Shown here piece after piece: positions 15,629 through 63,675 of a DNA stretch of 64,000 nt. Below the pieces are notes generated by a model. It was not told the origin of the DNA. It saw nothing but the letters and a program-made list of their open reading frames with translations, and ran no database searches. Both the position numbers and the translations under genes were made by a program. The DNA comes from Candidatus Woesearchaeota archaeon (GTDB taxonomy: Archaea; Nanobdellota; Nanobdellia; Woesearchaeales; JABIAG01): the NCBI GenBank assembly GCA_018653365.1, contig JABIAG010000001.1, forward strand, positions 634,586-698,585. Direction: 5' to 3'. Positions within the stretch are counted from its first letter, which is position 1; each line of letters begins with the position of its first letter.

Positions 15629-15637
15629 TATTTAAAG
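15629..15637 (-). promoter_or_regulatory. TATA box of the S-layer gene (leadered transcript)
   Basis: Minus strand reads CTTTAAATA about 70-75 nt upstream of the ATG at 15561. GGAGGTG lies 6 nt before the ATG. Confidence 0.45.
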
Positions 15638-37688: not shown

Positions 37689-37740
37689 TACTTAAAGTAG
37701 TCCGACGGTATTTAAAAAAGTTTAGCAAAAATAAGCACAA

Positions 37741-39054
37741 TTAAAGCAAAGTCAACATATGCTCTCTAAAGAAGTTCATTGATCGTGGAAACGTATTAAC
37801 CTTCAAAATAGTCTTTTGATAATTATCCCTTAACTTAGCAGCTTGCTTTTGTGTTAAACCTGATTTAACCTCATAAGTTAGATTTGGTTCTAGAACAGTA
37901 CGAGGATGTTCAGTGATAGATTTAATTTGAAACTTATTTGGGTTGGAAAATATTTCCGTATTCTTTTGCAAACCAAAAACAGAAAAAGAAACTAAATCTA
38001 TTGGATTAGTTTCAATTAATTTAATTGATTCCAAGAATTCTTCTTTGGTTTCAGAAGGAAATCCCGCAATCATGTACACAACGTTCTTTATGCCTGCATC
38101 GTGAGAGTTCTTTAAAACAGTTTGAATATCTTTAACATTAGTTCCTTTATTTATTAATTTAAGAATTCTGTTACTAGCTGATTCAACCCCCCACATAATC
38201 ATCTTTAAACCAGATTCTCTTAAAATTGTTAAGGTGTTAAGGTCTAGGTCTATTGTTGGTTTTAGCTGACAGGTCCAAGAAATGTTTAATGGCTTGAATG
38301 CTTTGGCTAATTTTAGTAATCTAGTTTTGTGGATCATATCATCAATTAAGAAAAAATGCTTTTGTTTAGATGAAATAATTGTTTTTAGGATGTCTTCAAT
38401 AGGGAGTTCTTGATAAGGTTGCTGATTGTAATGAGTACAAAAAGTACACTTCTTATAATAACAAGAAGAAGACGTTTTTAGTGGGATAACTGGATGCGGG
38501 GTGAAGTATTCATCTAGGTTATAAATTGAAAAATCAGGAACTGAAGGGAGAGTGTTGGTCGTGTTTAAGTAATTTAATAATTCAGCTTCATCACTTAAAT
38601 ACGTTGAGAGCTTCTTTAACTTATCATTCACTGCAGGCCCACCAATAACCGTTGGAATGTTTAGTTCTCTTAGTAATGCAGTTGCGTAAAACGCCTGACT
38701 TGAATAAACAATACTGAACGCGACTAGGTCAGGTTTTTGCTCTTTTATCTTATTTAATAATTCGTTGAACAATTCTGGCTTTTCTCCGTTTACCACTTTC
38801 TTATTGTTTTCAGAATAAACTTTTCCGGACTCTTTAGTAAACTTAGAAGCAACCTCTTCATAATCATCCCAATTAGTTTGTTTACAGTATTTTTTGAACT
38901 CGGGAAACTTTAACTTATGAAATTCTAAGTTTAGGTCAAGTACGGTTATGTTATGATCAGTATTGGCTTTTAAAACCGAATGTAAATGCGTTAAAGAATA
39001 GGGAGGAGTAACAGGCGTACAAAAAGGAAGATATACCAATAATATGTTTTTCAT
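37741..39054 (-). CDS. radical SAM protein with N-terminal B12-binding-like domain (class B-like)
   Basis: N-terminus ILLVYLPF...PPYSLTHL and the DLVAFSIVYSS Rossmann-like segment. The cluster motif is CYYKKCTFC, i.e. CX4CX2C rather than CX3CX2C. Confidence 0.75.
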   Translation of the reverse strand: MKNILLVYLPFCTPVTPPYSLTHLHSVLKANTDHNITVLDLNLEFHKLKFPEFKKYCKQTNWDDYEEVASKFTKESGKVYSENNKKVVNGEKPELFNELLNKIKEQKPDLVAFSIVYSSQAFYATALLRELNIPTVIGGPAVNDKLKKLSTYLSDEAELLNYLNTTNTLPSVPDFSIYNLDEYFTPHPVIPLKTSSSCYYKKCTFCTHYNQQPYQELPIEDILKTIISSKQKHFFLIDDMIHKTRLLKLAKAFKPLNISWTCQLKPTIDLDLNTLTILRESGLKMIMWGVESASNRILKLINKGTNVKDIQTVLKNSHDAGIKNVVYMIAGFPSETKEEFLESIKLIETNPIDLVSFSVFGLQKNTEIFSNPNKFQIKSITEHPRTVLEPNLTYEVKSGLTQKQAAKLRDNYQKTILKVNTFPRSMNFFREHMLTLL

Positions 39055-39134
39055 ACTTATTGTTAAACTGATTAGATTATAATAGTATTGGTTGAATGCC
39101 CCAAAAAAAGAATTAAAAAGATAGATGTTTATGT

Positions 39135-39773
39135 TTAGACAACGTTAGATTCAATAATTTTACAAATATTTTTAACAGTTTCCTCAAAGTCCCCTGAATT
39201 ATCAACCTCAACAACATTATGATCTGAAACCCGTTCATAAATTAGATCTCTTTGCTTGTAAATTGATCTCATGTCATCTGTGACAGTCTCCCCACGTTCA
39301 CAAAGACGCGCCTCTTGCACTTCAGCAGGCAACTTTAACATAATTGTTAAATCAGGCTTCTTAAGGGGTTTTAGTAATTCACCCATCCAATCAATTAATT
39401 CGGAAATACTTTTAGACTCGTAATCAGAAAGGATTTTTGGAATTTCACAAGAGAAAACACTTGCGACATGACGATCTTTAAGAATAATTTTATTACTACT
39501 CAACGCAGGAATTATGAACTTTTCATTAAAATAAACCAGATCGGAAAAAACTAAGGAAAACCCATACATTGACAAAGGACCCTTCTCTTTTGGAACCAAA
39601 AAAGAATCTTGTTCAAGCAAAGTCTGAAGTGCAACTCCAACTTCTGAATCAGAAAACTCCGCTAATTTTAATATCTCTCGCCCACGCTTTTGCAGTTCTT
39701 GACTTACCGCCTCAATAAGTGATGACTTGCCACAAGCATCCAATCCTTCAAAAGCAACCAAAAGACCCGACAA
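39135..39773 (-). CDS. thymidylate-kinase-like P-loop kinase 1
   Basis: LLVAFEGLDACGKSSL (P-loop), DRHVASVFS and PDLTIML..P..VQEARL follow the Tmk pattern. I propose the TTG start at 39773, 1 nt after the upstream TGA. The track's ATG at 39896 would overlap the upstream gene by 122 nt. Confidence 0.65.
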   Translation of the reverse strand: MSGLLVAFEGLDACGKSSLIEAVSQELQKRGREILKLAEFSDSEVGVALQTLLEQDSFLVPKEKGPLSMYGFSLVFSDLVYFNEKFIIPALSSNKIILKDRHVASVFSCEIPKILSDYESKSISELIDWMGELLKPLKKPDLTIMLKLPAEVQEARLCERGETVTDDMRSIYKQRDLIYERVSDHNVVEVDNSGDFEETVKNICKIIESNVV

Positions 39774-39774
39774 C

Positions 39775-41925
39775 TCAACACCCCTCAAGAATGTTCCTAA
39801 CCTCTGATGTGATTCGGTTGTATTCTGCAGAATCTTTTGTCGCCCAACAAGAGGCATCATGTTCAGTAAGAACAACAGGCCCTTCACTAACCTCAACTAA
39901 AAAATTAAACTGTCTTACAGACTTACCACTTCCAGAAACATAGTCAAAAGAACCAACATATGATTTAAAATCTTGAACATCCAACCCAGTCTCTTCTTTA
40001 ACCTCTCGCACAGTGCCCTCTTTTAATCCTTCCCCTGGATTTAAATTCCCACTTGGCAGTTCATAAATTCCCCCCATAAAGTCTGAAGAAGGCCGGTGTA
40101 ATAACAAGAACTTACCCTCGCGTTTTATTACTGCGCCTACAACAAGTTTTTGTATTCCTTCCTCCTCAGACACTTTTATTAATTCAGTAATGGTTTCATC
40201 CAACATTTTTGGTTTTAAGAGAGCTTTGTGGCTTTTTATAACTTTCCTAAATGCCCTAATATATTCTTCGACAAGCTCTAAATCATCCAAATCATGCCAA
40301 ACAGGAATCTTAAGAGCGTTCTTGTAAAAGCTTTCCGCATGAGGCATATCTCCCCACGTATAGTTTAACTTCCCATCATAATTTGGAAAAAGCTTTTCGG
40401 GCTGTTGCAATAACGGTAATAGGTTAAGAGCTCCAGTTGATCCCGGATGGTCCAATTCACAACACCCTTCAGCCAATAACGCATCATAAAACGTATCAAA
40501 TGGCAAACCATCTAACTCCGCGGAAACGTATTGAATTGTAAAAGCATACCAACTAGGGTCTTTATCTTCAAAGTCCGGAATGTGAATCCCTTTTAACCCC
40601 TTTAACCCCTCAACAAGTCGCGATGCAATAATCCTCCGCGTCTCAACTAATTCCTCAACAGACTCCAATTGTTCGTAAACAATAGCAGCAGCGATAGGGT
40701 GAATTCTGAATTTTAATCCCATTCCCGTAACTGCGTATTTGTAATATTCTGAATCTTTTGGAATCTCATTCTTACAACGCTTGTTATAATGGCCCAATAA
40801 TAAAGCGCGATGAAAAACTTCGTCATTGTTTGTTATTAAACAACCTCCTTCCCCCCCTGTAACAGTTTTAGGACCTTGAATGCTGAACGCGGCGGCATCG
40901 CCAAAGGTTCCAACGAACCGACCTTTATACTTAGCAAAATGTGCATGGGAACAATCTTCCAATAACAAAAGATTATTTTCTTTAGCAATCTTAACAATCG
41001 CATCCATATCGCATGGAACCCCCCACATATGTGTAATAATAATCGCTTTAGTCTTGGAAGAAATCTTCTTTTTAATCTCTAACGGATCTATATTCCCATC
41101 TGCATTACAATCTGCCAAGACAGGTATTGCCCCTGTAAAAAAAAGCGGAGTAATAGTTGCATGAAACGTATATGCCGGACAAATAACTTCATCCCCCTCC
41201 TTTAAATTTGCAGCAACAAATAAAGAGTGTAAAGCAGAAGTTCCTGAATTCGTTAGTAATGCGTGTTTAACCCCATAAATCTTACAAAACTTATCCTCCA
41301 ACTCCTCAATAATCCCTGATCGATCATAAATTGAAATGTTTGAATATAACTGTTTCTTTACTGCTTCTTCTGTTCGCTTTGAAATTATTGGCCAAGAATA
41401 ATGTGAATGAATACGCGTTACAACCTTTTTTCCACCCAGGATTGCTAATTTATCTTCATCCAAAAAACCATTCAAAAATGTTAGTTGTTGTTCCCTATAC
41501 TCTTTAACATCTGAAGCGAAGGGCGAAGAAGAATTAATCTTAGATATCACCTCTTTTAACTCCATAAACTTGCTTCCTTCCCAATAATCTTCAACCTCCT
41601 CAACTGAAGAACAGGATAAGACTTTTCCAAAGAAAAAATACATGTTGTCCCCTTTATACTTCAAATAACGTGCTTTTTGTTTTTCTGTTTTAGCCCAGGT
41701 ATCTCCCCAAACAGTTTTTAATTGACCCAAGCTCCCAACAATCTTTACATTAAACCCAGTCTCTTCAAGCGTTTCACGAATCATTCCAGTTTTAACATTC
41801 TCATTATCAATCCCGCCTCCTGGAAAGATGATCAGACCATTATCTTCCTTAGCGAGGATCTCACCCTTATCATTAAAAAAATACCCTTCACAATTTTTTC
41901 GTAAAGGCAATAAACCTCTGTTCAT
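39775..41925 (-). CDS. tri-domain fusion: NUDIX - DegT/DnrJ/EryC1/StrS-type PLP aminotransferase - NUDIX
   Basis: Nudix box 1 GGGIDNENVKTGMIRETLEETGF. Aminotransferase LLTNSGTSALH...FSIQGPKTVTGGEGG (PLP Lys). Nudix box 2 SGNLNPGEGLKEGTVREVKEETGL. Confidence 0.8.
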   Translation of the reverse strand: MNRGLLPLRKNCEGYFFNDKGEILAKEDNGLIIFPGGGIDNENVKTGMIRETLEETGFNVKIVGSLGQLKTVWGDTWAKTEKQKARYLKYKGDNMYFFFGKVLSCSSVEEVEDYWEGSKFMELKEVISKINSSSPFASDVKEYREQQLTFLNGFLDEDKLAILGGKKVVTRIHSHYSWPIISKRTEEAVKKQLYSNISIYDRSGIIEELEDKFCKIYGVKHALLTNSGTSALHSLFVAANLKEGDEVICPAYTFHATITPLFFTGAIPVLADCNADGNIDPLEIKKKISSKTKAIIITHMWGVPCDMDAIVKIAKENNLLLLEDCSHAHFAKYKGRFVGTFGDAAAFSIQGPKTVTGGEGGCLITNNDEVFHRALLLGHYNKRCKNEIPKDSEYYKYAVTGMGLKFRIHPIAAAIVYEQLESVEELVETRRIIASRLVEGLKGLKGIHIPDFEDKDPSWYAFTIQYVSAELDGLPFDTFYDALLAEGCCELDHPGSTGALNLLPLLQQPEKLFPNYDGKLNYTWGDMPHAESFYKNALKIPVWHDLDDLELVEEYIRAFRKVIKSHKALLKPKMLDETITELIKVSEEEGIQKLVVGAVIKREGKFLLLHRPSSDFMGGIYELPSGNLNPGEGLKEGTVREVKEETGLDVQDFKSYVGSFDYVSGSGKSVRQFNFLVEVSEGPVVLTEHDASCWATKDSAEYNRITSEVRNILEGC

Positions 41926-47019: not shown

Positions 47020-47667
47020 ATGGTATCAATAGCACACCTAGTAAAACAATGGCTAAAAGAAAGAGCATTCATAGATGAATACCTAAAAGAAGGATTGATC
47101 AACTATGGAGCACTAGCAGAAAAAATACAACCCGAAATAGAAGCAGACCTAGGAAAAGTCAAACTTCTAACCATAGCAATGGCACTAAGAAGATATGCAG
47201 AAACTTCTAAAAAAGAAAAAGTGTCTACACCCTCATTCAAAAACTTTGAACTATCCATGAAAGGCAACTTATGTGATGTTTGCGTTTACAAATCACCACA
47301 CCTATTCAAAAAACTTGAAGAAATCTATAAATTAGTAGATTATAACAAAGGAGACACACTAAACATAATACACGGAAACCACGACGTATCAATACTAATA
47401 AACGAAAAGTTTGAAACAAAACTAAAAAACATACTAAAAGGAGAAAAAATACTACACGCAGAAGAAAATCTAGTAGCACTAACAGTAAAGTTTGGAGAAA
47501 GCGTACTCTACACACCAGGCGTAGACTTCGAACTTATCAAACAACTAGTAATAGAAAACGTAAACCTAATAGAAATAGTATCCTCAATGATAGAACTAAG
47601 TTTTATCATAAATAAAAAAGACGCATCCAAAGGATATAGGGCATTGCAAGAGTTTATTGAAAAGTAA
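47020..47667 (+). CDS. HTH plus ACT-domain protein (predicted amino-acid-responsive regulator), paralog 1
   Basis: KEGLINYGALAEKI matches KKGLINYSALARLI of the 60552 paralog. Same length and layout. Confidence 0.55.
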   Translation: MVSIAHLVKQWLKERAFIDEYLKEGLINYGALAEKIQPEIEADLGKVKLLTIAMALRRYAETSKKEKVSTPSFKNFELSMKGNLCDVCVYKSPHLFKKLEEIYKLVDYNKGDTLNIIHGNHDVSILINEKFETKLKNILKGEKILHAEENLVALTVKFGESVLYTPGVDFELIKQLVIENVNLIEIVSSMIELSFIINKKDASKGYRALQEFIEK

Positions 47668-47670
47668 CGT

Positions 47671-48825
47671 TTAAAGCAATTCAGTCTTTAAGATATCTTT
47701 AGAAGGAATTGATGCTTTAAGCTTCAATTCCCACATGCCATCAGGCTTGTTAATATCTAAACTTTCTTTTTTTGCTTGAACTAATGCTTCATCCAACCCA
47801 ACCCTGTTTGTAATCACTGTCTGATTAACCAAACTCAAAAAAACATCAAAATCACCCATGCACTGTTTGAATTTACGCGGAAGCGCCCTATAAATCGGTT
47901 TGCTTCGAGGATTCAAATATAATAAAACAGGTTTATGATCTTTCATTTTTTGCTTAACAACCTTAATGAAATACTGTAACCTTTGCTTATCTCTCAAACT
48001 CGCAACCTTGTCCGATCCGTCTTCTTGAATCTTTTCAGCAATCCTAAGAGGAAACTCCAATCGTTCAGGTCCTCTCCGAGCAAATCCCTCTGCGGCCTCC
48101 TTTTCATGCGTAATACAAATTTCTATCATATCAGACGTTCTTTTTGAATCAGCAATTCTTTCATAAAACCTCAAAAGCGAACTCTCAATAAATTGGATAT
48201 TGGGTTTAAGCCCATCCCGTTTTATGTTATCCAAACCTGCAGAAGAGGTACCATGATAAAATATAATGTTACTAATTTCTTTTTCCCAAAAATCCTTAAT
48301 CTTACCCAACCTTTCTTTTTCAAAGTTTTCAAGTTGTGAAAAGAAAGAACGCCCCCGTTGAAGCAGTTTATTTCTGAAGTAACTCGAAACGACCCGCAAC
48401 CCAGAAACGTTTTCAGATTCTAACTCATTTGCTATTCCAAAAACATCAGAAGACTCTGCAAACTCTTTTTGTTTTGTAATACTCCCACTTATAACAATTA
48501 ATGCGGCATTAAGGTCTTCTAGATCCTTACGAAAATCATAAGTCACTTGACTCCACAAACGTGTACCAAGATCCGTGCACAATTTTTCTAAATCTAGTAA
48601 TAACACTTCTTGTTTGTCTATCAAAGGAAACTCTGCTTCCTCTTTACCCACAAGCTTCAACAATCTTGTTTTGGACTTATTTACTCTTTTCCCTTTACGA
48701 ATTTTAGCAATTAGGCTTTCTTTTTGTTTATAAGAACCCTCAAGAATTACAACCGTTTGAAACGTGGAAGTTATCTCAGTTAATAATACTGATTCTTCCA
48801 CAACTTTTTTCTTAAAAAACAACAT
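47671..48825 (-). CDS. hypothetical protein with a possible ADP-ribosyltransferase-like (Tpt1/PARP-type HGT...GLKP) segment
   Basis: IIFYHGTSSAGLDNIKRDGLKPN resembles the hYHGT....l..I...GL.P segment I recall from KptA/Tpt1 and PARP catalytic domains. Nothing else recognised. Confidence 0.55.
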   Translation of the reverse strand: MLFFKKKVVEESVLLTEITSTFQTVVILEGSYKQKESLIAKIRKGKRVNKSKTRLLKLVGKEEAEFPLIDKQEVLLLDLEKLCTDLGTRLWSQVTYDFRKDLEDLNAALIVISGSITKQKEFAESSDVFGIANELESENVSGLRVVSSYFRNKLLQRGRSFFSQLENFEKERLGKIKDFWEKEISNIIFYHGTSSAGLDNIKRDGLKPNIQFIESSLLRFYERIADSKRTSDMIEICITHEKEAAEGFARRGPERLEFPLRIAEKIQEDGSDKVASLRDKQRLQYFIKVVKQKMKDHKPVLLYLNPRSKPIYRALPRKFKQCMGDFDVFLSLVNQTVITNRVGLDEALVQAKKESLDINKPDGMWELKLKASIPSKDILKTELL

Positions 48826-48857
48826 AAGAACATTTCTTTAGTTTAAATATATTAATG

Positions 48858-50045
48858 TTACTTTTTTTCAGCCAACATACCCATGTCTTTTCTTAACCTA
48901 TTCATTTTCCTAATACCTTTTCCCAAATGAAAAACGGCATTTGTACGTGAAGTTATTGCAATTAAAGGAGTTATTCCATGTTTCATACACACAGATTCAT
49001 ATTCTCTTAACAAAGTCACATGATTTAACTTTGCCATTGTCTTTATTGGCATTCTTTCAAACTTAAAAATTGTTGCAGGAATCGCAGGAGCAACCTTATA
49101 AGTTAAAGGAATTAACGCGTTTTTGTCACCAATAATCTTAGAAACAAGAGTGTCAAATGAACCCCTTGCACATAACACAAGTTCAGCCAGGTCCGATTTT
49201 CTAAATGGAACAGGACTCTTCTTGTAAACTCTTTTAAGAGATCCAAATTCTAACGCTGTTAAAATAAACTCAAAAGATGCCTTCATTTCAGAAATGTGCT
49301 TCTCCCCAACTTGAATCATTTCATCACATGACCTCGCTTCAATAACAAACTTTTCTATAAAAAGTGCCATACCCTCCCAACAAATACGCAATTTAACTTC
49401 TTCAACCAACTTCCTAACGTTTATATATGCTTGTAAAACATATTTTTGCAACGTTTCTAAATCTTTCACCTTCTTTCTTTCTAAATGTTTAAGGCCTGCC
49501 AACTCTCTTTTCTCTCCCCCAGAAATCCTTTCCAACCTTGCAATGTTTTTTTTTCTTATCTGTTTGGAATTACTCATATGATAATGGCGTAAATGAACCA
49601 ATTCATGAATTAAACAGGCCAACAAAGTTTTTCTAAAATTATCTTTCGCTCTCTCTCTAATATTTTCAGGCTGCTCTGAATGAGACTGAAGTAATTCTAA
49701 ACTAAAAACGTCCTCAATATTTAAATAAATTACATCCTTGCTTTTATCAAGATCATCTATAACAACCTTACCAAGTTCAAGAGATGAATTGTGAAGTTTT
49801 TCTTTTACTTTTTCTCGAGACACCTTTTTTTCAACTTTAAACACTATGTCAACATCATTAAACACGAACCCAATCCGTTTTGTCTTTAAAACAACACTCA
49901 TAATCTCATTAAGAAGTCTGCCATCAATTAATGAAAACACCAAGCCTCGTTTATAATTGGCCCAAAAACGAACAGTACAATTATCATACTGCATTTCATT
50001 AAGTAAGCTATAACGCAATCTTTGAATTAAACTCAGATTAGTCAT
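48858..50045 (-). CDS. hypothetical protein with HExxH plus a downstream Glu (gluzincin-like motif)
   Basis: LIHELVHLRHY and, about 75 aa later, WEGMALFIE. Confidence 0.55.
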   Translation of the reverse strand: MTNLSLIQRLRYSLLNEMQYDNCTVRFWANYKRGLVFSLIDGRLLNEIMSVVLKTKRIGFVFNDVDIVFKVEKKVSREKVKEKLHNSSLELGKVVIDDLDKSKDVIYLNIEDVFSLELLQSHSEQPENIRERAKDNFRKTLLACLIHELVHLRHYHMSNSKQIRKKNIARLERISGGEKRELAGLKHLERKKVKDLETLQKYVLQAYINVRKLVEEVKLRICWEGMALFIEKFVIEARSCDEMIQVGEKHISEMKASFEFILTALEFGSLKRVYKKSPVPFRKSDLAELVLCARGSFDTLVSKIIGDKNALIPLTYKVAPAIPATIFKFERMPIKTMAKLNHVTLLREYESVCMKHGITPLIAITSRTNAVFHLGKGIRKMNRLRKDMGMLAEKK

Positions 50046-50119
50046 ACAAATACAATTATGTTTATGTATATAAACATTATCTAATTAGAAAGGAATATTA
50101 TTCTTAGACTAAAACTCAC

Positions 50120-50512
50120 TTACTTAGTATGTCTATAACAGTAATCCTTGGATCTGCCCTCTAAGGTGATCTCTTCACACAATTCCGGATTGTGAGTAGT
50201 CACTGCAATCCCTGCCAAACAAGAGTTTTTTCTGGTTTCGTTAAGATTAGTTTTACAAAGATTAACATCTTCTAAATTTATTGCAACCTTAAAAATACAT
50301 GATTCTTTAGCATTAAGATCAACCAAAGCAGCACTTACCAAACCGACTTCACTAAAAACAATCAGGTTACCACAATCATCAAACAAGGGTTCACGATTTT
50401 GACCAACATAACCAGAATCACTAACAGACATACCTCTTTGAAAATCTTGATTGGCTGCAGCACGAAGACTTTGATGTGCACCAGCTAATGCCTGTCTCTC
50501 TTCATAATTCAT
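50120..50512 (-). CDS. hypothetical protein (130 aa), GC-richer ORFan
   Basis: ORF only. Several Cys in the C-terminal half. Confidence 0.45.
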   Translation of the reverse strand: MNYEERQALAGAHQSLRAAANQDFQRGMSVSDSGYVGQNREPLFDDCGNLIVFSEVGLVSAALVDLNAKESCIFKVAINLEDVNLCKTNLNETRKNSCLAGIAVTTHNPELCEEITLEGRSKDYCYRHTK

Positions 50513-51277: not shown

Positions 51278-51338
51278 AACAGTTACGAAGAAGAACGATT
51301 TAATAAATGTGTTGCTTTTAGACGATAAATTCAGGAAT

Positions 51339-51349
51339 CTTTATAAAAG
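51339..51349 (+). promoter_or_regulatory. TATA box for the radical-SAM operon (divergent region shared with the S51 peptidase gene)
   Basis: CTTTATAAAAG lies 23-33 nt upstream of the ATG at 51372. Confidence 0.45.
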
Positions 51350-51371
51350 TAGCTCCATTAATATTTATAAA

Positions 51372-52739
51372 ATGAAACGAGTGGCTTTGGTTTATCTGCC
51401 TTACTCGGATATTATTTTTGGGTCTGAGAAAAGCACGAAAGGAATAACCCCTCCACTCGGATTGCTCTACCTACAATCTTATAACAAAGACTTTGCTAAC
51501 ATAAAAGTTTTTGACGGCGAAATTTACGATTCTATAACCGGCCTAATTAACGCAATTAAAATATTTAATCCAGAAATCATAGGCGTTACCTTGCTTACCT
51601 CAACGTTTCCGCGTGCAAAAGAATTCATTTCCCAATTTGATAAACGAATAACACGAATTGCAGGAGGACCATATGCCACCGCACGCCCAACAGAAGTTCT
51701 ACAACACTTTGACATAGCTGCGTCTGGAGAGGCCGAACAAACCCTCAGAGAAATAATTCAAAACAAGCCATTAAGAGATATAAAAGGGATCTATTACAAA
51801 GAAAACAACAAAATAAAGAAAACAGAAAAAAGAGAACCAATAACCAATCTCGATCATCTTCCTCAAATTATCTGGGAAGACGTAGACCTATCCAAATATC
51901 AACAATCCTATGAAAGAGGAAACTTCTCAAACGTAGGGGCAATAATGACCTCCAGAGGATGCGGATTTAACTGTGACTACTGTTGTAGTGAATCAATGTA
52001 TGGAAGTAACGTAAGATTTAGATCAAATACAAACATAATTGAAGAGTTAGAAACACTAAAAAAAAACCACAATGTAAAGTTCATAGAATTTTGGGACGAC
52101 ACATTTACTTTAGGCTATAAGAAAAGAACCGAACTGTTTACTTATTTGAGAAAAAAAGGCATTCATTTCAGTTGTAATGCTCGCGCAGACACTGTTGATG
52201 AAGAGTGCATAAAAATATTAACTAAAGCTGGATGCAAAAACATATTTTTTGGCATAGAATCAGCAAACCCAAACACATTAAAAGACCTTGGACGGAGCAT
52301 GGATCAGAATAAAATAACCAATGCATTCAAACTTGCAAAAAAATATGGACTTAAGACAATAGGGAGTTTTATGTTTGGAGCCCCAAATGAAAACCTAGCA
52401 AGTGTACACCAAACAATTGCACTAGCAAAAAAACTTAATCCAGACAGAGTACTGTTTAACATTGTAACTGCCCATCCCGGAACTAAACTATACAAAAGAT
52501 GTGTTGAAGAAAAAATAATTCCCAGGTACAAAGTAGATCCACAGAAATACGCAAAAGAACCAATAGGGGTTCCTTCGTCCTGCAAAAATATTAATCGAGA
52601 GAAACTCCAAAGACTAAAGTTCCAAGCTTACAAAGAATATTATGTTAGGCCTAAATTCATAATTTCACAATTACTTAAATGTAGAAGTATAACCGAGATA
52701 AAAACATTAATTGATTTAACAAAAACATATAAAAAATGA
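51372..52739 (+). CDS. class B (cobalamin-binding domain) radical SAM enzyme
   Basis: N-terminus VALVYLPY...PPLGLLYLQSY, GVTLLTS, and cluster motif SRGCGFNCDYC. The track's start at 51174 is rejected because it overlaps the S51 gene and the promoter. Confidence 0.85.
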   Translation: MKRVALVYLPYSDIIFGSEKSTKGITPPLGLLYLQSYNKDFANIKVFDGEIYDSITGLINAIKIFNPEIIGVTLLTSTFPRAKEFISQFDKRITRIAGGPYATARPTEVLQHFDIAASGEAEQTLREIIQNKPLRDIKGIYYKENNKIKKTEKREPITNLDHLPQIIWEDVDLSKYQQSYERGNFSNVGAIMTSRGCGFNCDYCCSESMYGSNVRFRSNTNIIEELETLKKNHNVKFIEFWDDTFTLGYKKRTELFTYLRKKGIHFSCNARADTVDEECIKILTKAGCKNIFFGIESANPNTLKDLGRSMDQNKITNAFKLAKKYGLKTIGSFMFGAPNENLASVHQTIALAKKLNPDRVLFNIVTAHPGTKLYKRCVEEKIIPRYKVDPQKYAKEPIGVPSSCKNINREKLQRLKFQAYKEYYVRPKFIISQLLKCRSITEIKTLIDLTKTYKK

Positions 52740-53605
52740 CTACAAAAAGCTTTGCATACAATGCTAAAACACACGTGTTTAGTTTTGACCCTGCAACAGA
52801 AGGATTCTTTAACCTAGCTATGCAAATAACAAAAAGATGTGGGCTCAATTGTTTACCCTGTTGTGAATCTGACCCCACAAGCGAACTACAAACTCCAGAA
52901 TTGGTTACAGTCGTAAAAAGATTAGAAGAACACGCAGTTAGAAGAGTGTGCTTAACCGGAGGAGAACCAACAATAAGAAAAGATTTTGTTCAAATAGTCA
53001 ATGAATTATATAATGCGGGCATAATTGTTACACTGGCATCAAACTGTTACCAAATAATTCCCTCAATCCCAGAAATTCAGGGAAAGGTTGCAAACATTCG
53101 AGCAACACTGTTTGGCACAAAAACAACTCATGACAACATTACAAAACAACCAGGAAGTTACAGAAAACTCCAAAACGCGGTATCTCAATTATTAGAAGCA
53201 GAAATTCCAGTTTATGCTTGTATGACCTTAATGCAGTCAAATTTACAAGAACTAGAACAGGTCTGGCAAACCTGCCAAGAGTGGGGGATTGAAAAACTAC
53301 TTACTTTTTCCTTAATGAACAAAGGAAGAGGGAAAACAATATTTGAAAGAGAGAGGGTCACAGATGCTGAGGTTCAGAGACAATTAAAAACAGTGACTGG
53401 CAATATATACTGGACAAATTTTATGCGTGAAGGACAGTGTGCAATGATCCAACCAGATGGCAACCTAATTGCTACTCCCTGTTATTCAGAACCAACAGGA
53501 GTGAAAGTTGTGGGTAGTGTTTTGAAAGAACCACTTTTGGCCCTATGGCAAAAATATCCTTACAAAAAGAACTATTTAGCGTATTACGGAGAAAAAACAG
53601 AATGA
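52736..53605 (+). CDS. radical SAM enzyme with short twitch/SPASM-like C-terminus
   Basis: KRCGLNCLPC, VCLTGGEPTIRKDF, C-terminal CAMIQPDGNLIATPC...VGSVLKEPLLALW. ATGA overlap with the upstream gene. Confidence 0.8.
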   Translation: MTTKSFAYNAKTHVFSFDPATEGFFNLAMQITKRCGLNCLPCCESDPTSELQTPELVTVVKRLEEHAVRRVCLTGGEPTIRKDFVQIVNELYNAGIIVTLASNCYQIIPSIPEIQGKVANIRATLFGTKTTHDNITKQPGSYRKLQNAVSQLLEAEIPVYACMTLMQSNLQELEQVWQTCQEWGIEKLLTFSLMNKGRGKTIFERERVTDAEVQRQLKTVTGNIYWTNFMREGQCAMIQPDGNLIATPCYSEPTGVKVVGSVLKEPLLALWQKYPYKKNYLAYYGEKTE

Positions 53606-54723
53606 TAAAAAAAGAACAAAAAACTGAACGCATCACAGCATACACGTTCAGTGCACAAAAAGTAACAGACTTAACAAAAGCACACACCCTACTTTGTAAA
53701 GCATTCAAAGAGAGACCAATAGGTACATATGGAGGGGTGAACACAGACACGCTTTATGAAGCAATAACAAGAAAAGGATATGACATAACCAGAGAAGAGA
53801 TTTGTGCAAAAGATGATGAAGATGTAGGATTACACATGCCAAACTTCTGGCCAATAAATATAGGAGAGTGGGCGATGAGCATTGCAATGTATTATTCTTA
53901 CATGCAAATGAGGTACACTTCAGGATTTCCCACATTTCCTTCATGGAACCGGCAAGCAAGAACAGAAATTGGGTGGGAAAGCACAATAGAGGTTTATGAT
54001 TTGAATAGGCTCACAAAAAGACTAGAAACAAATGAATGGCCCTTTTTTAGTAGCCCCCTGACTCTAACTGAATGCATGAGACATTTAGAAGGTTGGCAAA
54101 TGCGAAGATTAAATGCTTACAAAGAGTATTCTAGAAAAATTGAAGCATGGGCAAAAAAGCAACCATTTTATGACGCTACAGAATGGCATTTAGGAAGAGA
54201 ACAAAGCAAAAGACTAATGCAAAAAACAGGACAGATAACAAATGTAAGATACTGTGTAAAAAGATTCTGGCAAGACGTTCTTACCCAGAGAGAGTTGCAA
54301 GAAGGCGATCGCGAATTAGATATTGTAACTCCTTTATTTTCACAAGATAGAATGCCTGACCTAATGTTAGTTGGTGAAGACTTCTTCGAAACAGATGGAA
54401 GATTCACCCCTTTTGACCCAGAACAACACTCCACACTAACATTTAAATACAATTTTCAAAGCAGGGTGGAACATACCAATCCCGTTAGAAAAGAGGATCC
54501 CAAACAACACAATTATATGACTGCACAAATAGCAACAGAACAACATCCCCACACCAACGTTGTACTACTCTCCTTTGATCCACAGCAAAGAAAATTATTC
54601 AAATTAATAAAAGAAGATGGAACAAAAGAGGGATTAAGCTTAGAAGTTATTTTGGCATCTGCCGCCTGTCTAGATTATTTAGGTGTTAACATACTCAAAG
54701 AGGTGGAAACATGTCTCTCGTAG
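53602..54723 (+). CDS. hypothetical protein (373 aa), aromatic/Trp-rich ORFan inside the radical-SAM operon
   Basis: ATG at 53602 forms an ATGA overlap with the upstream stop. No domain recognised. Confidence 0.65.
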   Translation: MIKKEQKTERITAYTFSAQKVTDLTKAHTLLCKAFKERPIGTYGGVNTDTLYEAITRKGYDITREEICAKDDEDVGLHMPNFWPINIGEWAMSIAMYYSYMQMRYTSGFPTFPSWNRQARTEIGWESTIEVYDLNRLTKRLETNEWPFFSSPLTLTECMRHLEGWQMRRLNAYKEYSRKIEAWAKKQPFYDATEWHLGREQSKRLMQKTGQITNVRYCVKRFWQDVLTQRELQEGDRELDIVTPLFSQDRMPDLMLVGEDFFETDGRFTPFDPEQHSTLTFKYNFQSRVEHTNPVRKEDPKQHNYMTAQIATEQHPHTNVVLLSFDPQQRKLFKLIKEDGTKEGLSLEVILASAACLDYLGVNILKEVETCLS

Positions 54724-55703
54724 TTCCAAAGAAGTATTTTATGATGACCACGAGAAGATGTAATTGTGATTGTGATTACTGCTACGCTTCACCAGACAAT
54801 AGAGATATGTCTGAAGAGGTATTAACCACCAGCACTAGACAAATAATGAAAACAGTAGCTAAACCTTTGTTCATGTGGTACGGCGGAGAACCCATTCTAA
54901 GAGCTAGGGGGTTTTTTGAGAAAGCAATAGAACTTCAAGAAGGAAAAGCTAGAAACTTAATCCAAACAAACCTCACGTTAAACAAACCAGAACTACTAGA
55001 ATTTCTTTTAGAAAACTCGTTTACAATTAGCACAAGCATTGACGGGCCAAGAAGACTACATGACCTTAGAAGAAGATACTGCTCAGGAAACTCAAACTTT
55101 TCTGACATTGAAACTAATCGGGCATTATTACAAGAAAAAGGTTATACTCCTTGGGCAATATGTGTAGTATCAAAAACTAATGTTGCACATCCTGAAGAAA
55201 TCTTTGATTTCTTCTACGAAAAAGGTCTTAACATAAGATTCTGCCCAACAACAACCGCAGAAGTTAATCCCGTTGATTACATCAAGTTTATGCAACGCAT
55301 TCATAAAAAATGGCAACAAAAACCTGAGATCAAAATTTCTAATTTCTCTAAAGCGCGACAAACAGTTATTACTGGAACCCCGCAAGAATGTGACAATATG
55401 TCAAACTGTCTTGAAAACAATCTTTGCATTGATGTTGATGGACAAATTTATCCTTGCAATAGATTTGCAGGAAACCAAGAGTTCTCACTTGGAGAGGTAG
55501 AGAACGGAGTTTTAACTGCTTTAAATTCTAAAAAAGGAAGAGAACTAGCCGAACGCACAACAAACTGCGAACACAATTGCACTACCTGCCTAAACGGAGG
55601 ATGTATGTTTAATGCATTATCCCAACATGGAGATTGGAAAACTGTTGACGATTTTTGCATTGCGAACCAAGAACTGCTAAATATTGTGAGGCAAGATGAG
55701 TAA
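54711..55703 (+). CDS. radical SAM/SPASM-domain enzyme (anSME/peptide-maturase-like)
   Basis: RRCNCDCDYC, WYGGEPIL and the SPASM-type C-terminus CIDVDGQIYPCNRF...LGEV...CEHNCTTCLNGGC. Confidence 0.8.
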   Translation: MSLVVPKKYFMMTTRRCNCDCDYCYASPDNRDMSEEVLTTSTRQIMKTVAKPLFMWYGGEPILRARGFFEKAIELQEGKARNLIQTNLTLNKPELLEFLLENSFTISTSIDGPRRLHDLRRRYCSGNSNFSDIETNRALLQEKGYTPWAICVVSKTNVAHPEEIFDFFYEKGLNIRFCPTTTAEVNPVDYIKFMQRIHKKWQQKPEIKISNFSKARQTVITGTPQECDNMSNCLENNLCIDVDGQIYPCNRFAGNQEFSLGEVENGVLTALNSKKGRELAERTTNCEHNCTTCLNGGCMFNALSQHGDWKTVDDFCIANQELLNIVRQDE

Positions 55704-56484
55704 TTACCCAGTAATTAATAATGTGATGGGACATCTGGAAAGAGATGAATCTGCAGATTTCGGAGAACACAATCTTGAAAGTTGTAGCATATGTCGAGAG
55801 TTAAAGCATGAAAAAAATATTATTTGTGGATCAGAAAGGTTTGTAGCCTTCCCAGACATAGGACAAATCGTCGAAGGATATGTTCAGGTTGTAACAAGAT
55901 GGCACAAATTACAAGAAGAACTAACCTCCGTTGGACAGATCCCCTCAGAATGGATTCCTGAACTGCAAAAGTTTATTGTTGCAATGCAAGAAGGTGTAGA
56001 AAGCATTTATGGTCCCTCGATCATATTTGAACATGGCGAGGTCCCAACATATAGAAAAGATGGAAGGATAAGAACAGTTCACATGCACATGCATATCATT
56101 CCAACCAACCAGTCCCTACTAGACCAGATTACAAACAGCAACATATTTACAGTTAAACCAATCGATGATTTAACTCCTCTACGCGAAAAATCTGCTTCGG
56201 GTGAACCGTACTACTTTTATCAAGACCTAAACAGACAAAACTACTTACTTGAATTTGGAGAAGAATTACCATCTCAAATATTACGAAAGTTGGTGAGTGG
56301 ATTACCAAAGGTTACAGAAAGAAATCAACACTGGTTAAAAGAAAACCAATCAGAAGTTCAACTTAATAATTGTTGGGAATGTATGGCATTCAGACCCGCA
56401 GACAGATTTTATGCAACAGTAAGAAAATTAAGGCAAGAATATTTAAATAGGAATACTAACACAACTCAAGCAGAGGTGAAATAA
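55696..56484 (+). CDS. HIT-superfamily protein with C-terminal extension
   Basis: Histidine triad VHMHMHIIP. Upstream CSICRE...FVAFPDIGQIVEGYVQVV is typical of HIT/GalT-like folds. Confidence 0.7.
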   Translation: MSNYPVINNVMGHLERDESADFGEHNLESCSICRELKHEKNIICGSERFVAFPDIGQIVEGYVQVVTRWHKLQEELTSVGQIPSEWIPELQKFIVAMQEGVESIYGPSIIFEHGEVPTYRKDGRIRTVHMHMHIIPTNQSLLDQITNSNIFTVKPIDDLTPLREKSASGEPYYFYQDLNRQNYLLEFGEELPSQILRKLVSGLPKVTERNQHWLKENQSEVQLNNCWECMAFRPADRFYATVRKLRQEYLNRNTNTTQAEVK

Positions 56485-57018
56485 ATGATAACACACGAAG
56501 AAGCATTAGACTTACTAAAAAAACACGGAATTGAGGGGTTTGTACTAAAACACGTTCTCAGAGTAAACCAGATTGCAGTTTATTTAGCTAAAAAGCTAAA
56601 AGAAAAAGGAGAGAGTGTTAATGTTGAACTTACAGACATTGCAAGCTTGTTACATGACATTGGGAAAAAATTAGCAGACTCCACACCAATGAACCACATA
56701 GACGCGGGTGTAAAAATACTAAATGATGAAGGAATGAAAGAGATTGGTGAAGTAATCAAAAAACATTCAATTAATGCAATAGTTGAAGAAGACAAAATTC
56801 CAACTACATGGGAAGAAAAACTGATCTTCTATGCTGACAGACGAGTAATAGAGGACAAAATTGCAAGTCTTGATGAAAGAATCACAGATCTAAAAACTAG
56901 ATACCCAGATATTGAAAAGTTCTTAGGAGAAGCTGTTCCAAAAATTAAAAAGCTAGAAGAAACAATATTCAACATACTTGACATTTCAAAAGACCTAACA
57001 GAGTTAAAGAATGACTGA
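56485..57018 (+). CDS. HD-domain phosphohydrolase (HDIG-like)
   Basis: HVLRV...LLHDIGK...YADR. Its ATG directly abuts the upstream stop. Confidence 0.8.
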   Translation: MITHEEALDLLKKHGIEGFVLKHVLRVNQIAVYLAKKLKEKGESVNVELTDIASLLHDIGKKLADSTPMNHIDAGVKILNDEGMKEIGEVIKKHSINAIVEEDKIPTTWEEKLIFYADRRVIEDKIASLDERITDLKTRYPDIEKFLGEAVPKIKKLEETIFNILDISKDLTELKND

Positions 57019-57661
57019 CAGAACAGAATTACTAAAAGAATATGTAGCAGAAATACAAACAAAAGAAAGAGTTTGTGCGGCACACTCTTTTGATCACACC
57101 TTAAGAGTTCTTGAAAACATAAAACAAATGTTAAAATATTCTGACGTAGACCCAGAACAAGCACTTGCAAGTGCTCTGTTACATGACATAATCAGACCAC
57201 CATATAGGGAAAAAGGGGGGAAAGAACACGCAGAACTAAGTGCAAAAGAAGCCAGAAAAGTATTACCTAAATTCGGATTTGACCAAGAAAGCACAAATGC
57301 AATAACACAAGCAATACGCGAACACAGCGCAACCAAGGACGTTAACAGGGGAGAATTATCCCAACTACTCTTTGAAGCAGATAAACTAGACACCTTTGGG
57401 AAAACCGGACTCGAAAGATGGATGTGTTTAGGCAAAGGAGATGGACTATCTCAACAAGAAATTTTAGAAGGAATATTAAAAATACAACTCAAACTATTAG
57501 TATTTAACACATTTAAAAACAAATATGCAAAAGAGGAACTCAAAAAAAGAAAGAAAATGCTATTTGATCACATAAAAAAAGAAATTGGAGAAGGCAAATT
57601 TGAACATATAGTAAACAACTTTGACTCAAATTACGACCCATACGCACACCTAATCAAATGA
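57011..57661 (+). CDS. HD-domain phosphohydrolase
   Basis: HSFDHTLRV...ALLHDI...EADKLD. 8-nt overlap with the upstream gene. Confidence 0.75.
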   Translation: MTDRTELLKEYVAEIQTKERVCAAHSFDHTLRVLENIKQMLKYSDVDPEQALASALLHDIIRPPYREKGGKEHAELSAKEARKVLPKFGFDQESTNAITQAIREHSATKDVNRGELSQLLFEADKLDTFGKTGLERWMCLGKGDGLSQQEILEGILKIQLKLLVFNTFKNKYAKEELKKRKKMLFDHIKKEIGEGKFEHIVNNFDSNYDPYAHLIK

Positions 57662-58050
57662 AACAAAAAATATCTGTAGGAGGAATGCTAGTTAAAGATG
57701 GAAAGGTATTAGTTGTAAGAAGAAGTAGTGTTGAAGAGGTGTTATCTGGCTATTACGAATTACCTGGAGGCAAGGTCGAATTTGGCGATCATCCAGAAGA
57801 GACCGTTGTTAGGGAGTTTAAAGAAGAAACCGGATTGGATGTTTCAGTAATTAAGTTGTTTAAAGTGTTTACTTATGTCATTGGTGAGAATCACACTGTT
57901 GAACTAGTTTACATTGTTTCTGGAGAGGGAGAGGTTGTTCTGAGTGAAGAACATGATGATTACAAATGGGTTAGTGATGTAAATGATTTACAAATGACTG
58001 AAAAAATGAAAAAAAATATTAAAGAAGGGCTAAATCTTCAAATTATTTAG
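57658..58050 (+). CDS. NUDIX hydrolase (MutT-like)
   Basis: Nudix box [28 protein letters not shown] overlap with the upstream gene. Confidence 0.85.
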
Positions 58051-60429: not shown

Positions 60430-60551
60430 AGTTAAATAATATTTTAAACAAAGATTTATAATTAACGACTGAAATGAAACTTGAATGAACAGAAGTGTTC
60501 TATTTAGAACACTTTAGTAAAGTTTATAAATATGAAAGGTTTCCTCCTTAC

Positions 60552-61142
60552 ATGAAATCAACAGCAGAACAAACAACAGACTACATCAAAGAACACCCAC
60601 ACATAAAATCGTGTTTGAAAAAAGGCCTGATAAACTATTCAGCACTGGCTCGTTTAATATCAAAAGAATTGAATATTGATAAGAAAACATCCAAAGAGGC
60701 TATTCTTATTGCAGCAAGAAGGTTTCAACAAAAGATTAAAAAAGAGTTTGGATATGATCGCGATATCAAAAAGTTACTATCTACCTCTGAAATAGAGGTA
60801 AAGAATAAAATCAATGTTTATGTTGTTGACAAAAACGTAAAAGTAGATGCAATAACACTAGAAGGATCAGAAAATAATACAGTGATAGTATCAGACAAGA
60901 ATAAGTGTTTAATTGAGAAAAAATTCAAGAATAGCATAATTAAGAAGCATACAGACCTAGTCTTAATAATAATCAAATCCTCAAAAGACATTGAGAGCAT
61001 TCCAGGAGTAGTAGCATACATAACCTCACTATTCTCAGAAAACGGAGTTAATATCGTGGAATTTTTATCTTGTTGGACAGATACGTTGTTTGTAATTGAA
61101 GCTAAAGATTTGCACAAAGCCATAGAATTCTTAAAGTTTTAA
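60552..61142 (+). CDS. HTH plus ACT-domain protein (predicted amino-acid-responsive regulator), paralog 2
   Basis: ACT-like C-terminus IPGVVAYITSLFSENGVNIVEFLSCWTDTLFVIEAKD. I use the ATG at 60552 because TATA AAGTTTATAAATA lies inside the track's longer ORF. Divergent from argH. Confidence 0.6.
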   Translation: MKSTAEQTTDYIKEHPHIKSCLKKGLINYSALARLISKELNIDKKTSKEAILIAARRFQQKIKKEFGYDRDIKKLLSTSEIEVKNKINVYVVDKNVKVDAITLEGSENNTVIVSDKNKCLIEKKFKNSIIKKHTDLVLIIIKSSKDIESIPGVVAYITSLFSENGVNIVEFLSCWTDTLFVIEAKDLHKAIEFLKF

Positions 61143-62634: not shown

Positions 62635-63675
62635 ATGAAAGACATAATTGCGGTGGATCTATTCTGTGGAGCAGGAGGATTAACCCGCGGCCTTTTAGAT
62701 GCTAAAATCAAAGTAACAAAAGGATTTGACAATAATGAAAACTTTAAAGAGACCTATGAAAAGAATAATCCTGGCACCGTTTTTAGTTCAAAGGACATAT
62801 GTGATTTAACAGGTAGTGAAGTCTTAAAAGATCTTGATTTAAAAAACAATTATCTTCTTCTGGCGGGGTGTGCACCATGCCAACCGTTTTCAAACATTAA
62901 TAAAAAAGAAGTTACAAAAGATAACAGAAAATTCCTATTACTTGAATTTGGAAGATTGGTTGAAGAAACCAAACCCGACTTTATTTTTATTGAAAATGTT
63001 CCTGGACTAGCAACAGGTAAAGGTAGAATAATATTTGAAACATTTAAGAAAAAACTTAAAAAAATGAAGTATCATTTTGATTATAACGTTGTTGATGCTA
63101 AAAGTTATGGCGTTCCACAAAAACGAATGCGTTTAATCCTTTTAGCTTCGGCACATACCCCCATAAAGTTCCCAAAACCCACGCATGGGAAAGAAAAATC
63201 GTTAAGTTCTTATGTCACAGTACGAGATGCGATTTCTTCCTACCCTGCAATAAAAGCAGGAGCTAAGCACAAAACAATATTTAATCATAACACCCGAAGT
63301 TTATCCACCATCAATAAAACCAGGTTAGAACATATTAAAAAGAATGGAGGTTCAAGATTTGACCTGCCAGACGATTTAGTGTTGGATTGCCATAAGAAAC
63401 ATAATGGACATTCTGATGTTTACGGAAGAATGTGGTGGGATAAAGCATCACCAACACTAACTTGCAAATGTACGAGTATCTCAAATGGAAGATTTGCTCA
63501 TCCCACTCAGAAAAGAGGAATTAGTGTAAGAGAAGCTGCTGCTCTTCAAACATTTGATGACAATTATCGATTTTATGGTACCCTAACAAACAACACAATA
63601 ATGGTGGGAAATGCCGTTCCGCCTCTCTTAGCAAAGAAAATTGGGATAGTATTTTTAAATAAAGACTCATTCTAA
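62635..63675 (+). CDS. dcm: DNA (cytosine-5)-methyltransferase
   Basis: Motif I DLFCGAGG, IV PCQPFS, VI ENVPG, VIII QKRMRL, IX REAAALQTF, X GNAVPP. Confidence 0.9.
   Translation: MKDIIAVDLFCGAGGLTRGLLDAKIKVTKGFDNNENFKETYEKNNPGTVFSSKDICDLTGSEVLKDLDLKNNYLLLAGCAPCQPFSNINKKEVTKDNRKFLLLEFGRLVEETKPDFIFIENVPGLATGKGRIIFETFKKKLKKMKYHFDYNVVDAKSYGVPQKRMRLILLASAHTPIKFPKPTHGKEKSLSSYVTVRDAISSYPAIKAGAKHKTIFNHNTRSLSTINKTRLEHIKKNGGSRFDLPDDLVLDCHKKHNGHSDVYGRMWWDKASPTLTCKCTSISNGRFAHPTQKRGISVREAAALQTFDDNYRFYGTLTNNTIMVGNAVPPLLAKKIGIVFLNKDSF

Follow-up and report, generated by a model that had tools for sequence, protein, structure and literature searches.

What do eight genes that are packed end to end in the small genome of a Candidatus Woesearchaeota archaeon make or modify? 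They form an operon at positions 51372-58050 (+ strand) of a 64,000-nt stretch of contig JABIAG010000001.1, which was analysed at its full length (referred to as the window), and encode three radical S-adenosylmethionine (radical SAM, rSAM) enzymes, a protein of 373 aa, a HIT-like protein, two HD phosphohydrolases and a NUDIX hydrolase. The operon proves to be real and conserved, and the coupling of its genes is unusually tight; members of known enzyme superfamilies surround a rare protein family for which we detected no relative by sequence or fold. The operon most probably serves a nucleotide-directed function, i.e., the cluster is probably a radical-SAM tailoring cluster that acts on nucleotides within an undescribed nucleotide-modifying pathway.

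All eight open reading frames (ORFs) lie on the same strand, and every coordinate, overlap and abutment given in the initial annotation of this DNA was reproduced exactly. Likewise, the motifs and domains named there (B12 rSAM, SPASM rSAM, HIT, two HD, NUDIX) are present according to Pfam and the translations. Neighbouring genes share ATGA overlaps of 4 nt each (52736/52739, 53602/53605, 57658/57661), a 13-nt overlap (54711/54723) and 8-nt overlaps (55696/55703, 57011/57018), and the ATG at 56485 directly follows the stop at 56484. That is, the gap is ≤0 nt for 7/7 junctions inside the cluster vs. 5/34 same-strand junctions elsewhere in the window (~15%, based on a crude gene call of the whole window), which argues for one co-translated unit. 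Assuming independent junctions, such a packing would be expected by chance with a probability of roughly 1e-6. Public gene calls of the same contig (NCBI GCA_018675265.1, JABGYM010000008.1) use the same starts.

The element common to all related clusters is the gene of the 373-aa protein (53602-54723, +). The initial annotation had taken its product for an ORFan, which has to be revised: a first search retrieved 8 homologues (33-50% identity), a full scan with a hidden Markov model found 30 clusters in 1.84 billion representatives, and motif-seeded scans provided 19 genomic and 31 metagenomic loci, of which 49 are distinct after duplicate removal (29-50% identity). The family is real, though very rare. 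Its named carriers are DPANN archaea and bacteria of the Candidate Phyla Radiation (CPR; Saccharibacteria, Paceibacterota, Doudnabacteria, Parcubacteria), and a scan of 2.9 million viral contigs gave zero matches. We also observed distant forms of 510-556 aa (P0021, P0022, P0024, P0025, P0027, P0029) with an extra N-terminal region of ~190 aa; they are devoid of the TLTECMR cysteine that the close family conserves. A Rosetta-stone attempt with this extension was uninformative with regard to neighbourhoods and gave no Pfam match.

For the 373-aa protein itself, no match was found in Pfam, NCBIfam, PADLOC or PHROGs. Neither the comparison of the family profile with PDB sequences nor a weak-match voting of 23 family members against Pfam (E ≤ 10) gave anything consistent. 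In the structure search suggested in the initial annotation, the AlphaFold2 model is confident (pLDDT 88.1, pTM 0.88), but Foldseek reports no significant match to this model, with a best E of 0.89 in PDB and of 0.93 in BFVD, nor to a separately modelled core domain (best E 1.1). Two fold resemblances were rejected. The stretch TYGGVNTD aligns to the PP-loop of ArgG, but the hhalign probability for a PP-loop ATP pyrophosphatase fold is 1.5%, the three GMP-synthetase Foldseek matches (E = 8-9) are lost with the core-domain model, and the loop reads FGD in CPR members. An ADP-ribosyltransferase/Tpt1-like fold, which stems from the Foldseek list of the core domain, is an unproven lead (E ≥ 1.1, probability ≤0.16, TM ≤0.24). 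The odds that something new is represented by the central protein are substantial. With regard to residues, G44, D72, L77, P80, G124, E130, W223, L227 and P252 are invariant throughout the superfamily, and N47, C68, G76, W83, N116, F149, P152, L155, D236 and R250 are nearly so. Such a pattern would fit the active site of an enzyme better than a protein with a structural role or the precursor of a peptide.

We compared the gene neighbourhoods of the 49 loci and found three recurring architectures. In the first (DPANN-1), five archaeal lineages (the window, L001, L009, L034 and L005) share the core order small rSAM, 373-aa gene, SPASM rSAM and HIT, with proteins that are merely 41-50% identical. 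An rSAM with a cobalamin (B12) domain is found upstream in 4/5 of them, and the two HD genes (HD1, 62% identical, and HD2) downstream wherever the contig continues. B12-rSAM and HD are absent from L005-L007 and hence peripheral. These loci (L005 at 1-15861) carry the four-gene core plus an FBP_C zinc-finger protein amid GmrSD, AAA_5, Fic, HTH and AEP primase-helicase genes, a context that resembles a mobile element or a defence island and differs from that of the window, where the operon is surrounded by metabolic genes. In the second architecture (DPANN-2; L002, L011, L014), a different rSAM (rSAM352; 352 aa, CPLECSYC) is followed by the 373-aa gene, a P-loop kinase resembling adenylate or cytidylate kinases (AK/CMK-like) and an HD protein; L011 and L014 also carry a NirJ-like or W-cofactor-maturase-like SPASM rSAM and a PAPS-reductase-like protein. 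The third architecture, from ~30 CPR loci, comes without any rSAM and combines NUDIX, the 373-aa gene, an APH/ELK-fold kinase and a guanylate-kinase-like (GK-like) kinase, sometimes with HAD and an NT5C deoxyribonucleotidase. Many of the CPR NUDIX proteins are fusions that carry an HD_3/YfbR-like 5'-deoxynucleotidase domain at the N-terminus (L025:8817-9899, L045, L053 and others); in the window, HD and NUDIX are separate genes, i.e., the same two activities are found unfused.

The gene order recurs in metagenome-assembled genomes of archaea, a question raised in the initial annotation, and the 373-aa family is found in CPR bacteria, too. The contexts differ among lineages, such that the loci do not agree on either a defence or a housekeeping setting: the cluster of L002 lies between the gene of elongation factor 2 (EF-2) and S7/S12/NusA/RNA polymerase genes, and TYW3 is found directly upstream of the cluster in L001. 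Summed over the 49 loci, the most frequent partners are the APH/ELK-fold kinase (26), NUDIX (25) and the guanylate-kinase-like P-loop kinase (21), besides HAD (5) and NT5C (3), and ~40/49 loci show no rSAM. That is, the rSAMs are lineage-specific and interchangeable across architectures, and the single feature common to all is that the family sits amid enzymes that are predicted to attach phosphates or nucleotidyl groups to (deoxy)nucleotides or to cleave them off. Since such partners are present with or without rSAMs, the common denominator is nucleotide phosphate chemistry.

Because the constant partners of the 373-aa family handle nucleotide phosphates, we favour a reading in which the eight genes specify a small-molecule pathway for a nucleoside or nucleotide substrate, with a new enzyme family, namely that of the 373-aa protein, at its centre. 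We hold this to be plausible rather than probable. A nucleotide-linked product had already been considered in the initial annotation, and it is the substrate class that gains independent support, i.e., from the kinases, NUDIX, HD_3/YfbR, NT5C and HAD next to the family in rSAM-free lineages. In such a pathway, the 373-aa protein would bind or transform a (deoxy)nucleotide-type substrate or would act as a substrate-presenting subunit; its candidate active site comprises the carboxylates D72, E130 and D236 as well as R250 and Trp residues. The small and the SPASM rSAM, translationally coupled on both sides of the 373-aa gene, would perform radical chemistry on that substrate, and the B12-rSAM might add a further step, e.g., methylation or a sugar-ring rearrangement. 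The HIT-like, HD1, HD2 and NUDIX proteins would set the phosphorylation/nucleotidylation state of intermediates and product; alternatively, HIT-like, HD and NUDIX enzymes may remove competing or toxic nucleotide species. The product could serve as an antiviral or antagonistic nucleotide analogue, as a modified DNA/RNA precursor or within a specialised salvage. In line with this reading, a distant HIT-like relative (P0040) is likewise coupled to a phosphoesterase. A bolder version seems possible to us, if somewhat doubtful: the 373-aa protein would found a new enzyme fold and, with interchangeable rSAM or kinase partners, make a previously unknown modified (deoxy)nucleotide (an antiviral/antagonistic analogue or a modified-DNA precursor) in episymbiotic DPANN and CPR organisms, exchanged between the domains.

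Several points weigh against the favoured nucleotide pathway. The nearest relatives of the SPASM enzyme (anSME, DynA, PapB) modify proteins or peptides, not nucleotides, and there is no kinase in the window's operon. The 373-aa protein has no recognisable nucleotide-binding fold in its model, given that both the PP-loop and the ADP-ribosyltransferase resemblance are statistically insignificant. HIT, HD and NUDIX enzymes act on polynucleotide ends too. Furthermore, two family motifs served as seeds for the sampling of loci, which is therefore biased. What we show is the structure of the operon, the identity of its domains, the conserved gene order and the recurrent nucleotide-phosphate partners in three architectures; which class of substrate is used, what the 373-aa protein catalyses and how the steps follow each other are inferences.

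All three rSAM enzymes are assigned to the radical SAM superfamily by PF04055 scores of 88.3, 43.0 and 51.2 bits (cut-off 29.5) and the motifs CGFNCDYC, CGLNCLPC and CNCDCDYC. The first (51372-52739, +; 455 aa) is classified as a class B (cobalamin-domain) enzyme, since a B12-binding domain (PF02310, 47.4 bits vs. cut-off 32.1; residues 22-128) precedes the rSAM core, and cobalamin binding is predicted. Its best NCBIfam models are HpnJ (2.8e-53) and BchE (4.8e-41), all far under cut-off, and its best PDB matches are AprD4, 9ccb and TsrM. Orthologues occupy the same position in L001, L009 and L034. The second, small rSAM (52736-53605, +; 289 aa, CGLNCLPCC) is always found directly upstream of the 373-aa gene in five lineages; it matches NirJ, AhbD, SkfB and MoaA-like models under their cut-offs and SkfB best in PDB (1.8e-16). 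The twitch-like C-terminus that had been proposed for it was rejected: among five orthologues, a single C-terminal Cys (in GQCA) is conserved and the window's second Cys is replaced by Tyr in the others, i.e., the cysteines of an auxiliary cluster are not conserved and the protein is thus not a twitch enzyme. The third (54711-55703, +; 330 aa) is anSME/DynA-like and is in addition assigned to the SPASM group (PF13186, 24.4 bits vs. cut-off 21.5). Its nine C-terminal Cys, enough for two auxiliary clusters, follow a pattern largely conserved among orthologues. NCBIfam reports DynA (5e-52) and anSME (3.5e-44), both under cut-off, as well as PapB, TIGR04083 and CbpB; the respective PDB match is anSME 4k37 (1.2e-27). 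No Pfam match to an N-terminal RiPP recognition element (RRE; RiPP: ribosomally synthesised and post-translationally modified peptide) or to PqqD was found in it.

In the main rival, the adjacent rSAMs would modify the 373-aa protein itself (by a cross-link, formylglycine-type oxidation, methylation or a derived cofactor), such that the matured protein would be the working, still nucleotide-related enzyme. Enzymes of this kind are known to act on protein partners, i.e., anSME on sulfatases, QhpD on QhpC and B12-rSAMs on methyl-coenzyme M reductase (MCR), and DynA/DarE-type enzymes cross-link Trp. The SPASM rSAM is anSME/DynA-like and RRE-less as are the protein-modifying anSMEs, its gene adjoins the 373-aa gene in every DPANN-1 locus, and it is the sole rSAM neighbour seen in L013, which shows the SPASM-373-aa gene pair. 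In the window, the 373-aa gene is sandwiched by two rSAM genes with overlapping stop/start codons, and the B12-rSAM matches the NCBIfam model of the MCR glutamine C-methyltransferase (5e-33). The initial annotation had described the 373-aa protein as Trp/aromatic-rich, which is confirmed for Trp (2.4%, more than in any other of 49 proteins, vs. 0.9% for the window), while aromatic residues as a whole show no more than a modest excess. Only in rSAM-linked members are both W115 and W125 invariant. On the other hand, the rSAM encoded upstream of the 373-aa gene is the small rSAM in some lineages and rSAM352 in others, i.e., a member of one or the other of two unrelated families, and every maturase model scores far under cut-off. 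When rSAM-linked and rSAM-free members are compared, C68 and C158 are equally conserved in the rSAM-free CPR members, such that no rSAM-specific Cys or Ser target was found. In addition, the ~40/49 loci with no rSAM nearby imply that the 373-aa protein works without rSAM maturation. We thus regard a maturation of the 373-aa protein as rather doubtful.

The same enzymes could also be taken for the maturases of a small ribosomal peptide that is encoded nearby or elsewhere, given that peptide maturases (DynA, PapB, TIGR04083, CbpB) are the best models of the SPASM rSAM. An unseen peptide precursor, as contemplated before, finds no room here: there is no intergenic space within the operon and only 94 nt upstream, the five lineages share no conserved small ORF, and Pfam reports neither an RRE/PqqD nor another leader-binding domain. 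The operon also has no protease or transporter, and its hydrolase set is atypical for RiPPs. We therefore do not count the operon among the RiPP rSAM maturase clusters and consider a peptide product highly improbable.

The second half of the operon encodes the hydrolases. The HIT-like nucleotide hydrolase or transferase (55696-56484, +; 262 aa) carries HMHMHIIP and a family-specific C-terminal domain. Its assignment to the HIT superfamily is based on TVHMHMHIIP, which is invariant as TxHxHxHIxP among four aligned orthologues, together with the conserved CSICRE and FEHGE; WxCMxFRPADRF is conserved as well. Its sole Pfam match, CwfJ_C_1, is marginal (22.5 bits vs. cut-off 21), and matches to HIT family members in PDB are weak (0.015-0.03). 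This HIT-like family is very rare: a single-sequence search retrieved the protein itself alone, and a profile search found 4 clusters, i.e., three beyond the query's own. The only distant relative (P0040 on ERZ1426824, 31% identity) is encoded by a gene that overlaps a Metallophos phosphoesterase gene by 8 nt, followed by an MFS transporter, and represents another HIT-phosphoesterase pairing. HD phosphohydrolase 1 (56485-57018, +; 177 aa, Pfam HD 47 bits) is of the TIGR00295-like or HDIG type and exceeds the cut-off of the NCBIfam HDIG domain (37.6 vs. 27.6 bits); its orthologues (62% identity) hold the same position in L001 and L009. HD phosphohydrolase 2 (57011-57661, +; 216 aa, Pfam HD 51 bits) belongs to a different HD subfamily and, judged by a BLASTP E-value of 0.18 between the two, is not a recent duplicate of HD1. 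An HD2 orthologue is found in L001, and weaker relatives end the rSAM352-type clusters. The terminal gene encodes a MutT-like NUDIX hydrolase (57658-58050, +; 130 aa, Pfam NUDIX 68.9 bits) with a Nudix box that was read from the translation; it matches NCBIfam MutT (2.5e-16, under cut-off) and PADLOC PDC-S07 (2.5e-21). Its position is specific to the window, yet NUDIX is the commonest partner of the 373-aa family in CPR.

Such a hydrolase set would also suit a cluster directed at nucleic acids, i.e., one that modifies or heals tRNA, rRNA or DNA with the rSAMs as base/ribose modifiers and with HIT (aprataxin/DcpS-like), HD (2',3'-phosphoesterase), NUDIX (5'-pyrophosphohydrolase) and kinases as end-processing enzymes. 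CwfJ_C_1 is an RNA-debranching-associated HIT-like domain, and both TYW3 upstream of the L001 cluster and the EF-2 to RNA polymerase surroundings of L002 are in accordance with this, as are Tpt1/KptA and DarT as top, though weak, Foldseek matches of the core domain. However, these matches are insignificant by the scores given above and the TYW3 and ribosomal contexts are seen in one lineage each. The NT5C, YfbR-like HD_3 and guanylate-kinase-like partners act on mononucleotides, and Pfam and NCBIfam assign a nucleic-acid-binding domain to none of the eight proteins. A nucleic acid as substrate is thus decidedly unlikely.

As a further rival, the cluster might degrade or recycle an unusual (deoxy)nucleotide scavenged from a host instead of making a new product. 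Here, the rSAMs would remove a modification, in analogy to queuine lyase during the salvage of queuosine. DPANN and CPR organisms depend on salvaged nucleotides, and the family is confined to them. Its partners are chiefly catabolic or recycling enzymes (YfbR-like HD_3, NT5C, HAD, NUDIX, kinases), and the L002 cluster sits amid housekeeping genes of translation and transcription. In contrast, the extreme rarity of the family (the 30 clusters reported above) is a poor fit to a generally needed salvage step, three rSAMs are heavy machinery for catabolism, and the core of L005-L007 is placed amid GmrSD, AAA_5, Fic and primase-helicase rather than metabolic genes. A specialised salvage or sanitation route is, in our view, unlikely.

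We also compared the nucleotide pathway favoured here with characterised systems. When assigned to curated pathways of NCBIfam (including molybdenum cofactor (Moco), pyrroloquinoline quinone (PQQ), mycofactocin, queuosine and viperin), no pathway model reaches its cut-off: the scores are 60 bits vs. 325 for MoaA, 41 vs. 381 for PqqE, 57 vs. 265 for MftC and 74 vs. 515 for NirJ. None of QueE, QueC and QueD is among the matches listed, and the partner genes of Moco, PQQ, mycofactocin, heme d1/heme b and queuosine are absent from the operon. An assignment to a curated pathway was thus rejected, which is in accordance with the statement of the initial annotation that no characterised pathway has this set, and literature searches for the gene combination found no description. 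Regarding known anti-phage systems, PADLOC provides only generic matches, i.e., to NUDIX (PDC-S07), to the B12-rSAM (PDC-M51A) and, weakly, to an rSAM (pVip), while the 373-aa and HIT-like proteins match neither PADLOC nor PHROGs.

A precedent for the synthesis of a nucleoside analogue is the oxetanocin system, where the cobalamin rSAM OxsB and the HD phosphohydrolase OxsA convert a 2'-deoxyadenosine phosphate into the antiviral nucleoside analogue oxetanocin-A (PMC9204698). It shows the same pairing of a B12-domain rSAM and an HD phosphohydrolase within one small operon (PMC9204698), and our literature search found no other characterised system that pairs these two families. With the B12-rSAM as query, OxsB and OxsA were not retrieved from PDB (E ≤ 1e-3); the domain pairing is present. 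The cluster studied here adds two rSAMs, the HIT-like and NUDIX proteins and the 373-aa protein, and its B12-rSAM and HD genes are peripheral, i.e., they are missing from L005-L007.

With regard to prokaryotic viperins (pVips), the linkage of an rSAM with a nucleotide kinase or hydrolase is alike, and clusters related to ours carry CMK/AK-like and GK-like kinases. The small rSAM matches the PADLOC pVip model weakly (3e-10; a second pVip match at 2e-8), a similarity of the generic rSAM core for which NirJ, AhbD, SkfB and MoaA models score better, none of them at cut-off. In contrast to pVips, the kinase-bearing CPR clusters have zero rSAM and the window operon has no kinase; viperin systems, in turn, come without the 373-aa family, the SPASM enzyme and the HIT protein. 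Given the weak matches and the missing kinase, the operon is not assigned to them.

The closest solved relative of the SPASM rSAM is anSME (4k37), i.e., an RRE-less enzyme with two sets of auxiliary-cluster Cys, and the SPASM gene lies beside that of a conserved protein of ~370 aa. However, TIGR03942 scores 151 bits vs. a cut-off of 349 and no sulfatase domain is found in the operon, which rejects an assignment to anSME. The adjoining 373-aa protein is not a sulfatase; it has no Pfam match and no C/S-x-P-x-R motif in its translation.

Finally, non-canonical deoxynucleoside triphosphate (dNTP) modules of phages and bacteria combine a base-modifying enzyme, a dedicated nucleoside monophosphate kinase and an HD enzyme or pyrophosphatase that clears competing nucleotides. 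Examples are the hydroxymethyl-deoxycytidine module of T4 (hydroxymethylase, deoxynucleoside monophosphate kinase and dCTPase) and the Z-genome set of PurZ, the HD protein DatZ and MazZ. Their logic matches the CPR set of 373-aa protein, GK-like kinase, HD_3-NUDIX and NT5C. They differ in that their modifying enzymes are not homologous to the 373-aa family, which is absent from viral contigs and PHROGs.

Beside the coding region, we inspected the operon's flanks and composition. The 94-nt spacer upstream (51278-51371, +) holds TATA-like boxes read directly from the sequence: an AT-rich box CTTTATAAAAG is located ~24-33 nt ahead of the first ATG, and TTTATAAA abuts that ATG. The spacer may act as an archaeal promoter, from which the operon would be transcribed with a short leader or none; as similar AT-rich boxes are expected in a genome of 35% GC, this reading is weak. 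The 3' end of the operon overlaps the convergent argG by 8 nt. The initial annotation had noted that the genes at 52736-56484 are richer in GC, which is numerically correct (0.375 vs. 0.351 and 0.344 for the flanking operon genes) but without any meaning, since the difference is below one standard deviation of the window (0.353 +/- 0.027 for 1-kb GC) and GC at third codon positions is nearly equal for the compared genes. The deduction of a horizontal transfer from GC was therefore rejected. The window is archaeal in character, i.e., it encodes an S_layer_C protein, and the nearest homologues of the cluster are found in Woesearchaeota, Nanoarchaeia and other archaeal metagenome-assembled genomes.

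Further genes of the window were recorded. Two paralogues of 215 aa (47020-47667 and 60495-61142, both +; 29% identity, E 4e-13) bracket a 13-kb stretch that carries the operon and argG/argH; for the first, Pfam gives only sub-threshold ACT_9 and DUF7523 matches. Three consecutive proteins (384, 395 and 130 aa; 47671-50512, -) show no Pfam match and are encoded just upstream of a peptidase S51 gene and the operon. A second radical-SAM cluster at 35952-41925 (-) encodes a 716-aa DegT/DnrJ-type aminotransferase with a fused C-terminal NUDIX domain (39775-41925), a 437-aa radical SAM protein (37741-39054), a 253-aa ORF and a 578-aa protein without Pfam match; it may perform NDP-sugar-type chemistry. 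Finally, a 346-aa ORF (62635-63675, +) shows the C5 DNA-methyltransferase-like motifs FCGAGG and ENVPG in its translation.

Most DPANN archaea and CPR bacteria have not been cultured, and many of their genes lack an assignment. For these organisms, the locus provides a concrete unit, namely a conserved, co-translated operon with a central protein that is confidently modelled and matches no solved or viral structure, and with partners that suggest a chemistry of nucleotides. Should its product be a new nucleotide analogue, the operon would join the few rSAM systems for nucleotide tailoring (viperin, OxsB/OxsA, 7-deazapurines) and could yield an antiviral-type compound or a new DNA/RNA modification. 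If the rSAMs instead mature the 373-aa protein, a new post-translationally derived catalytic centre would result. The distribution shared by DPANN and CPR adds a case of gene exchange between two radiations of ultra-small cells.

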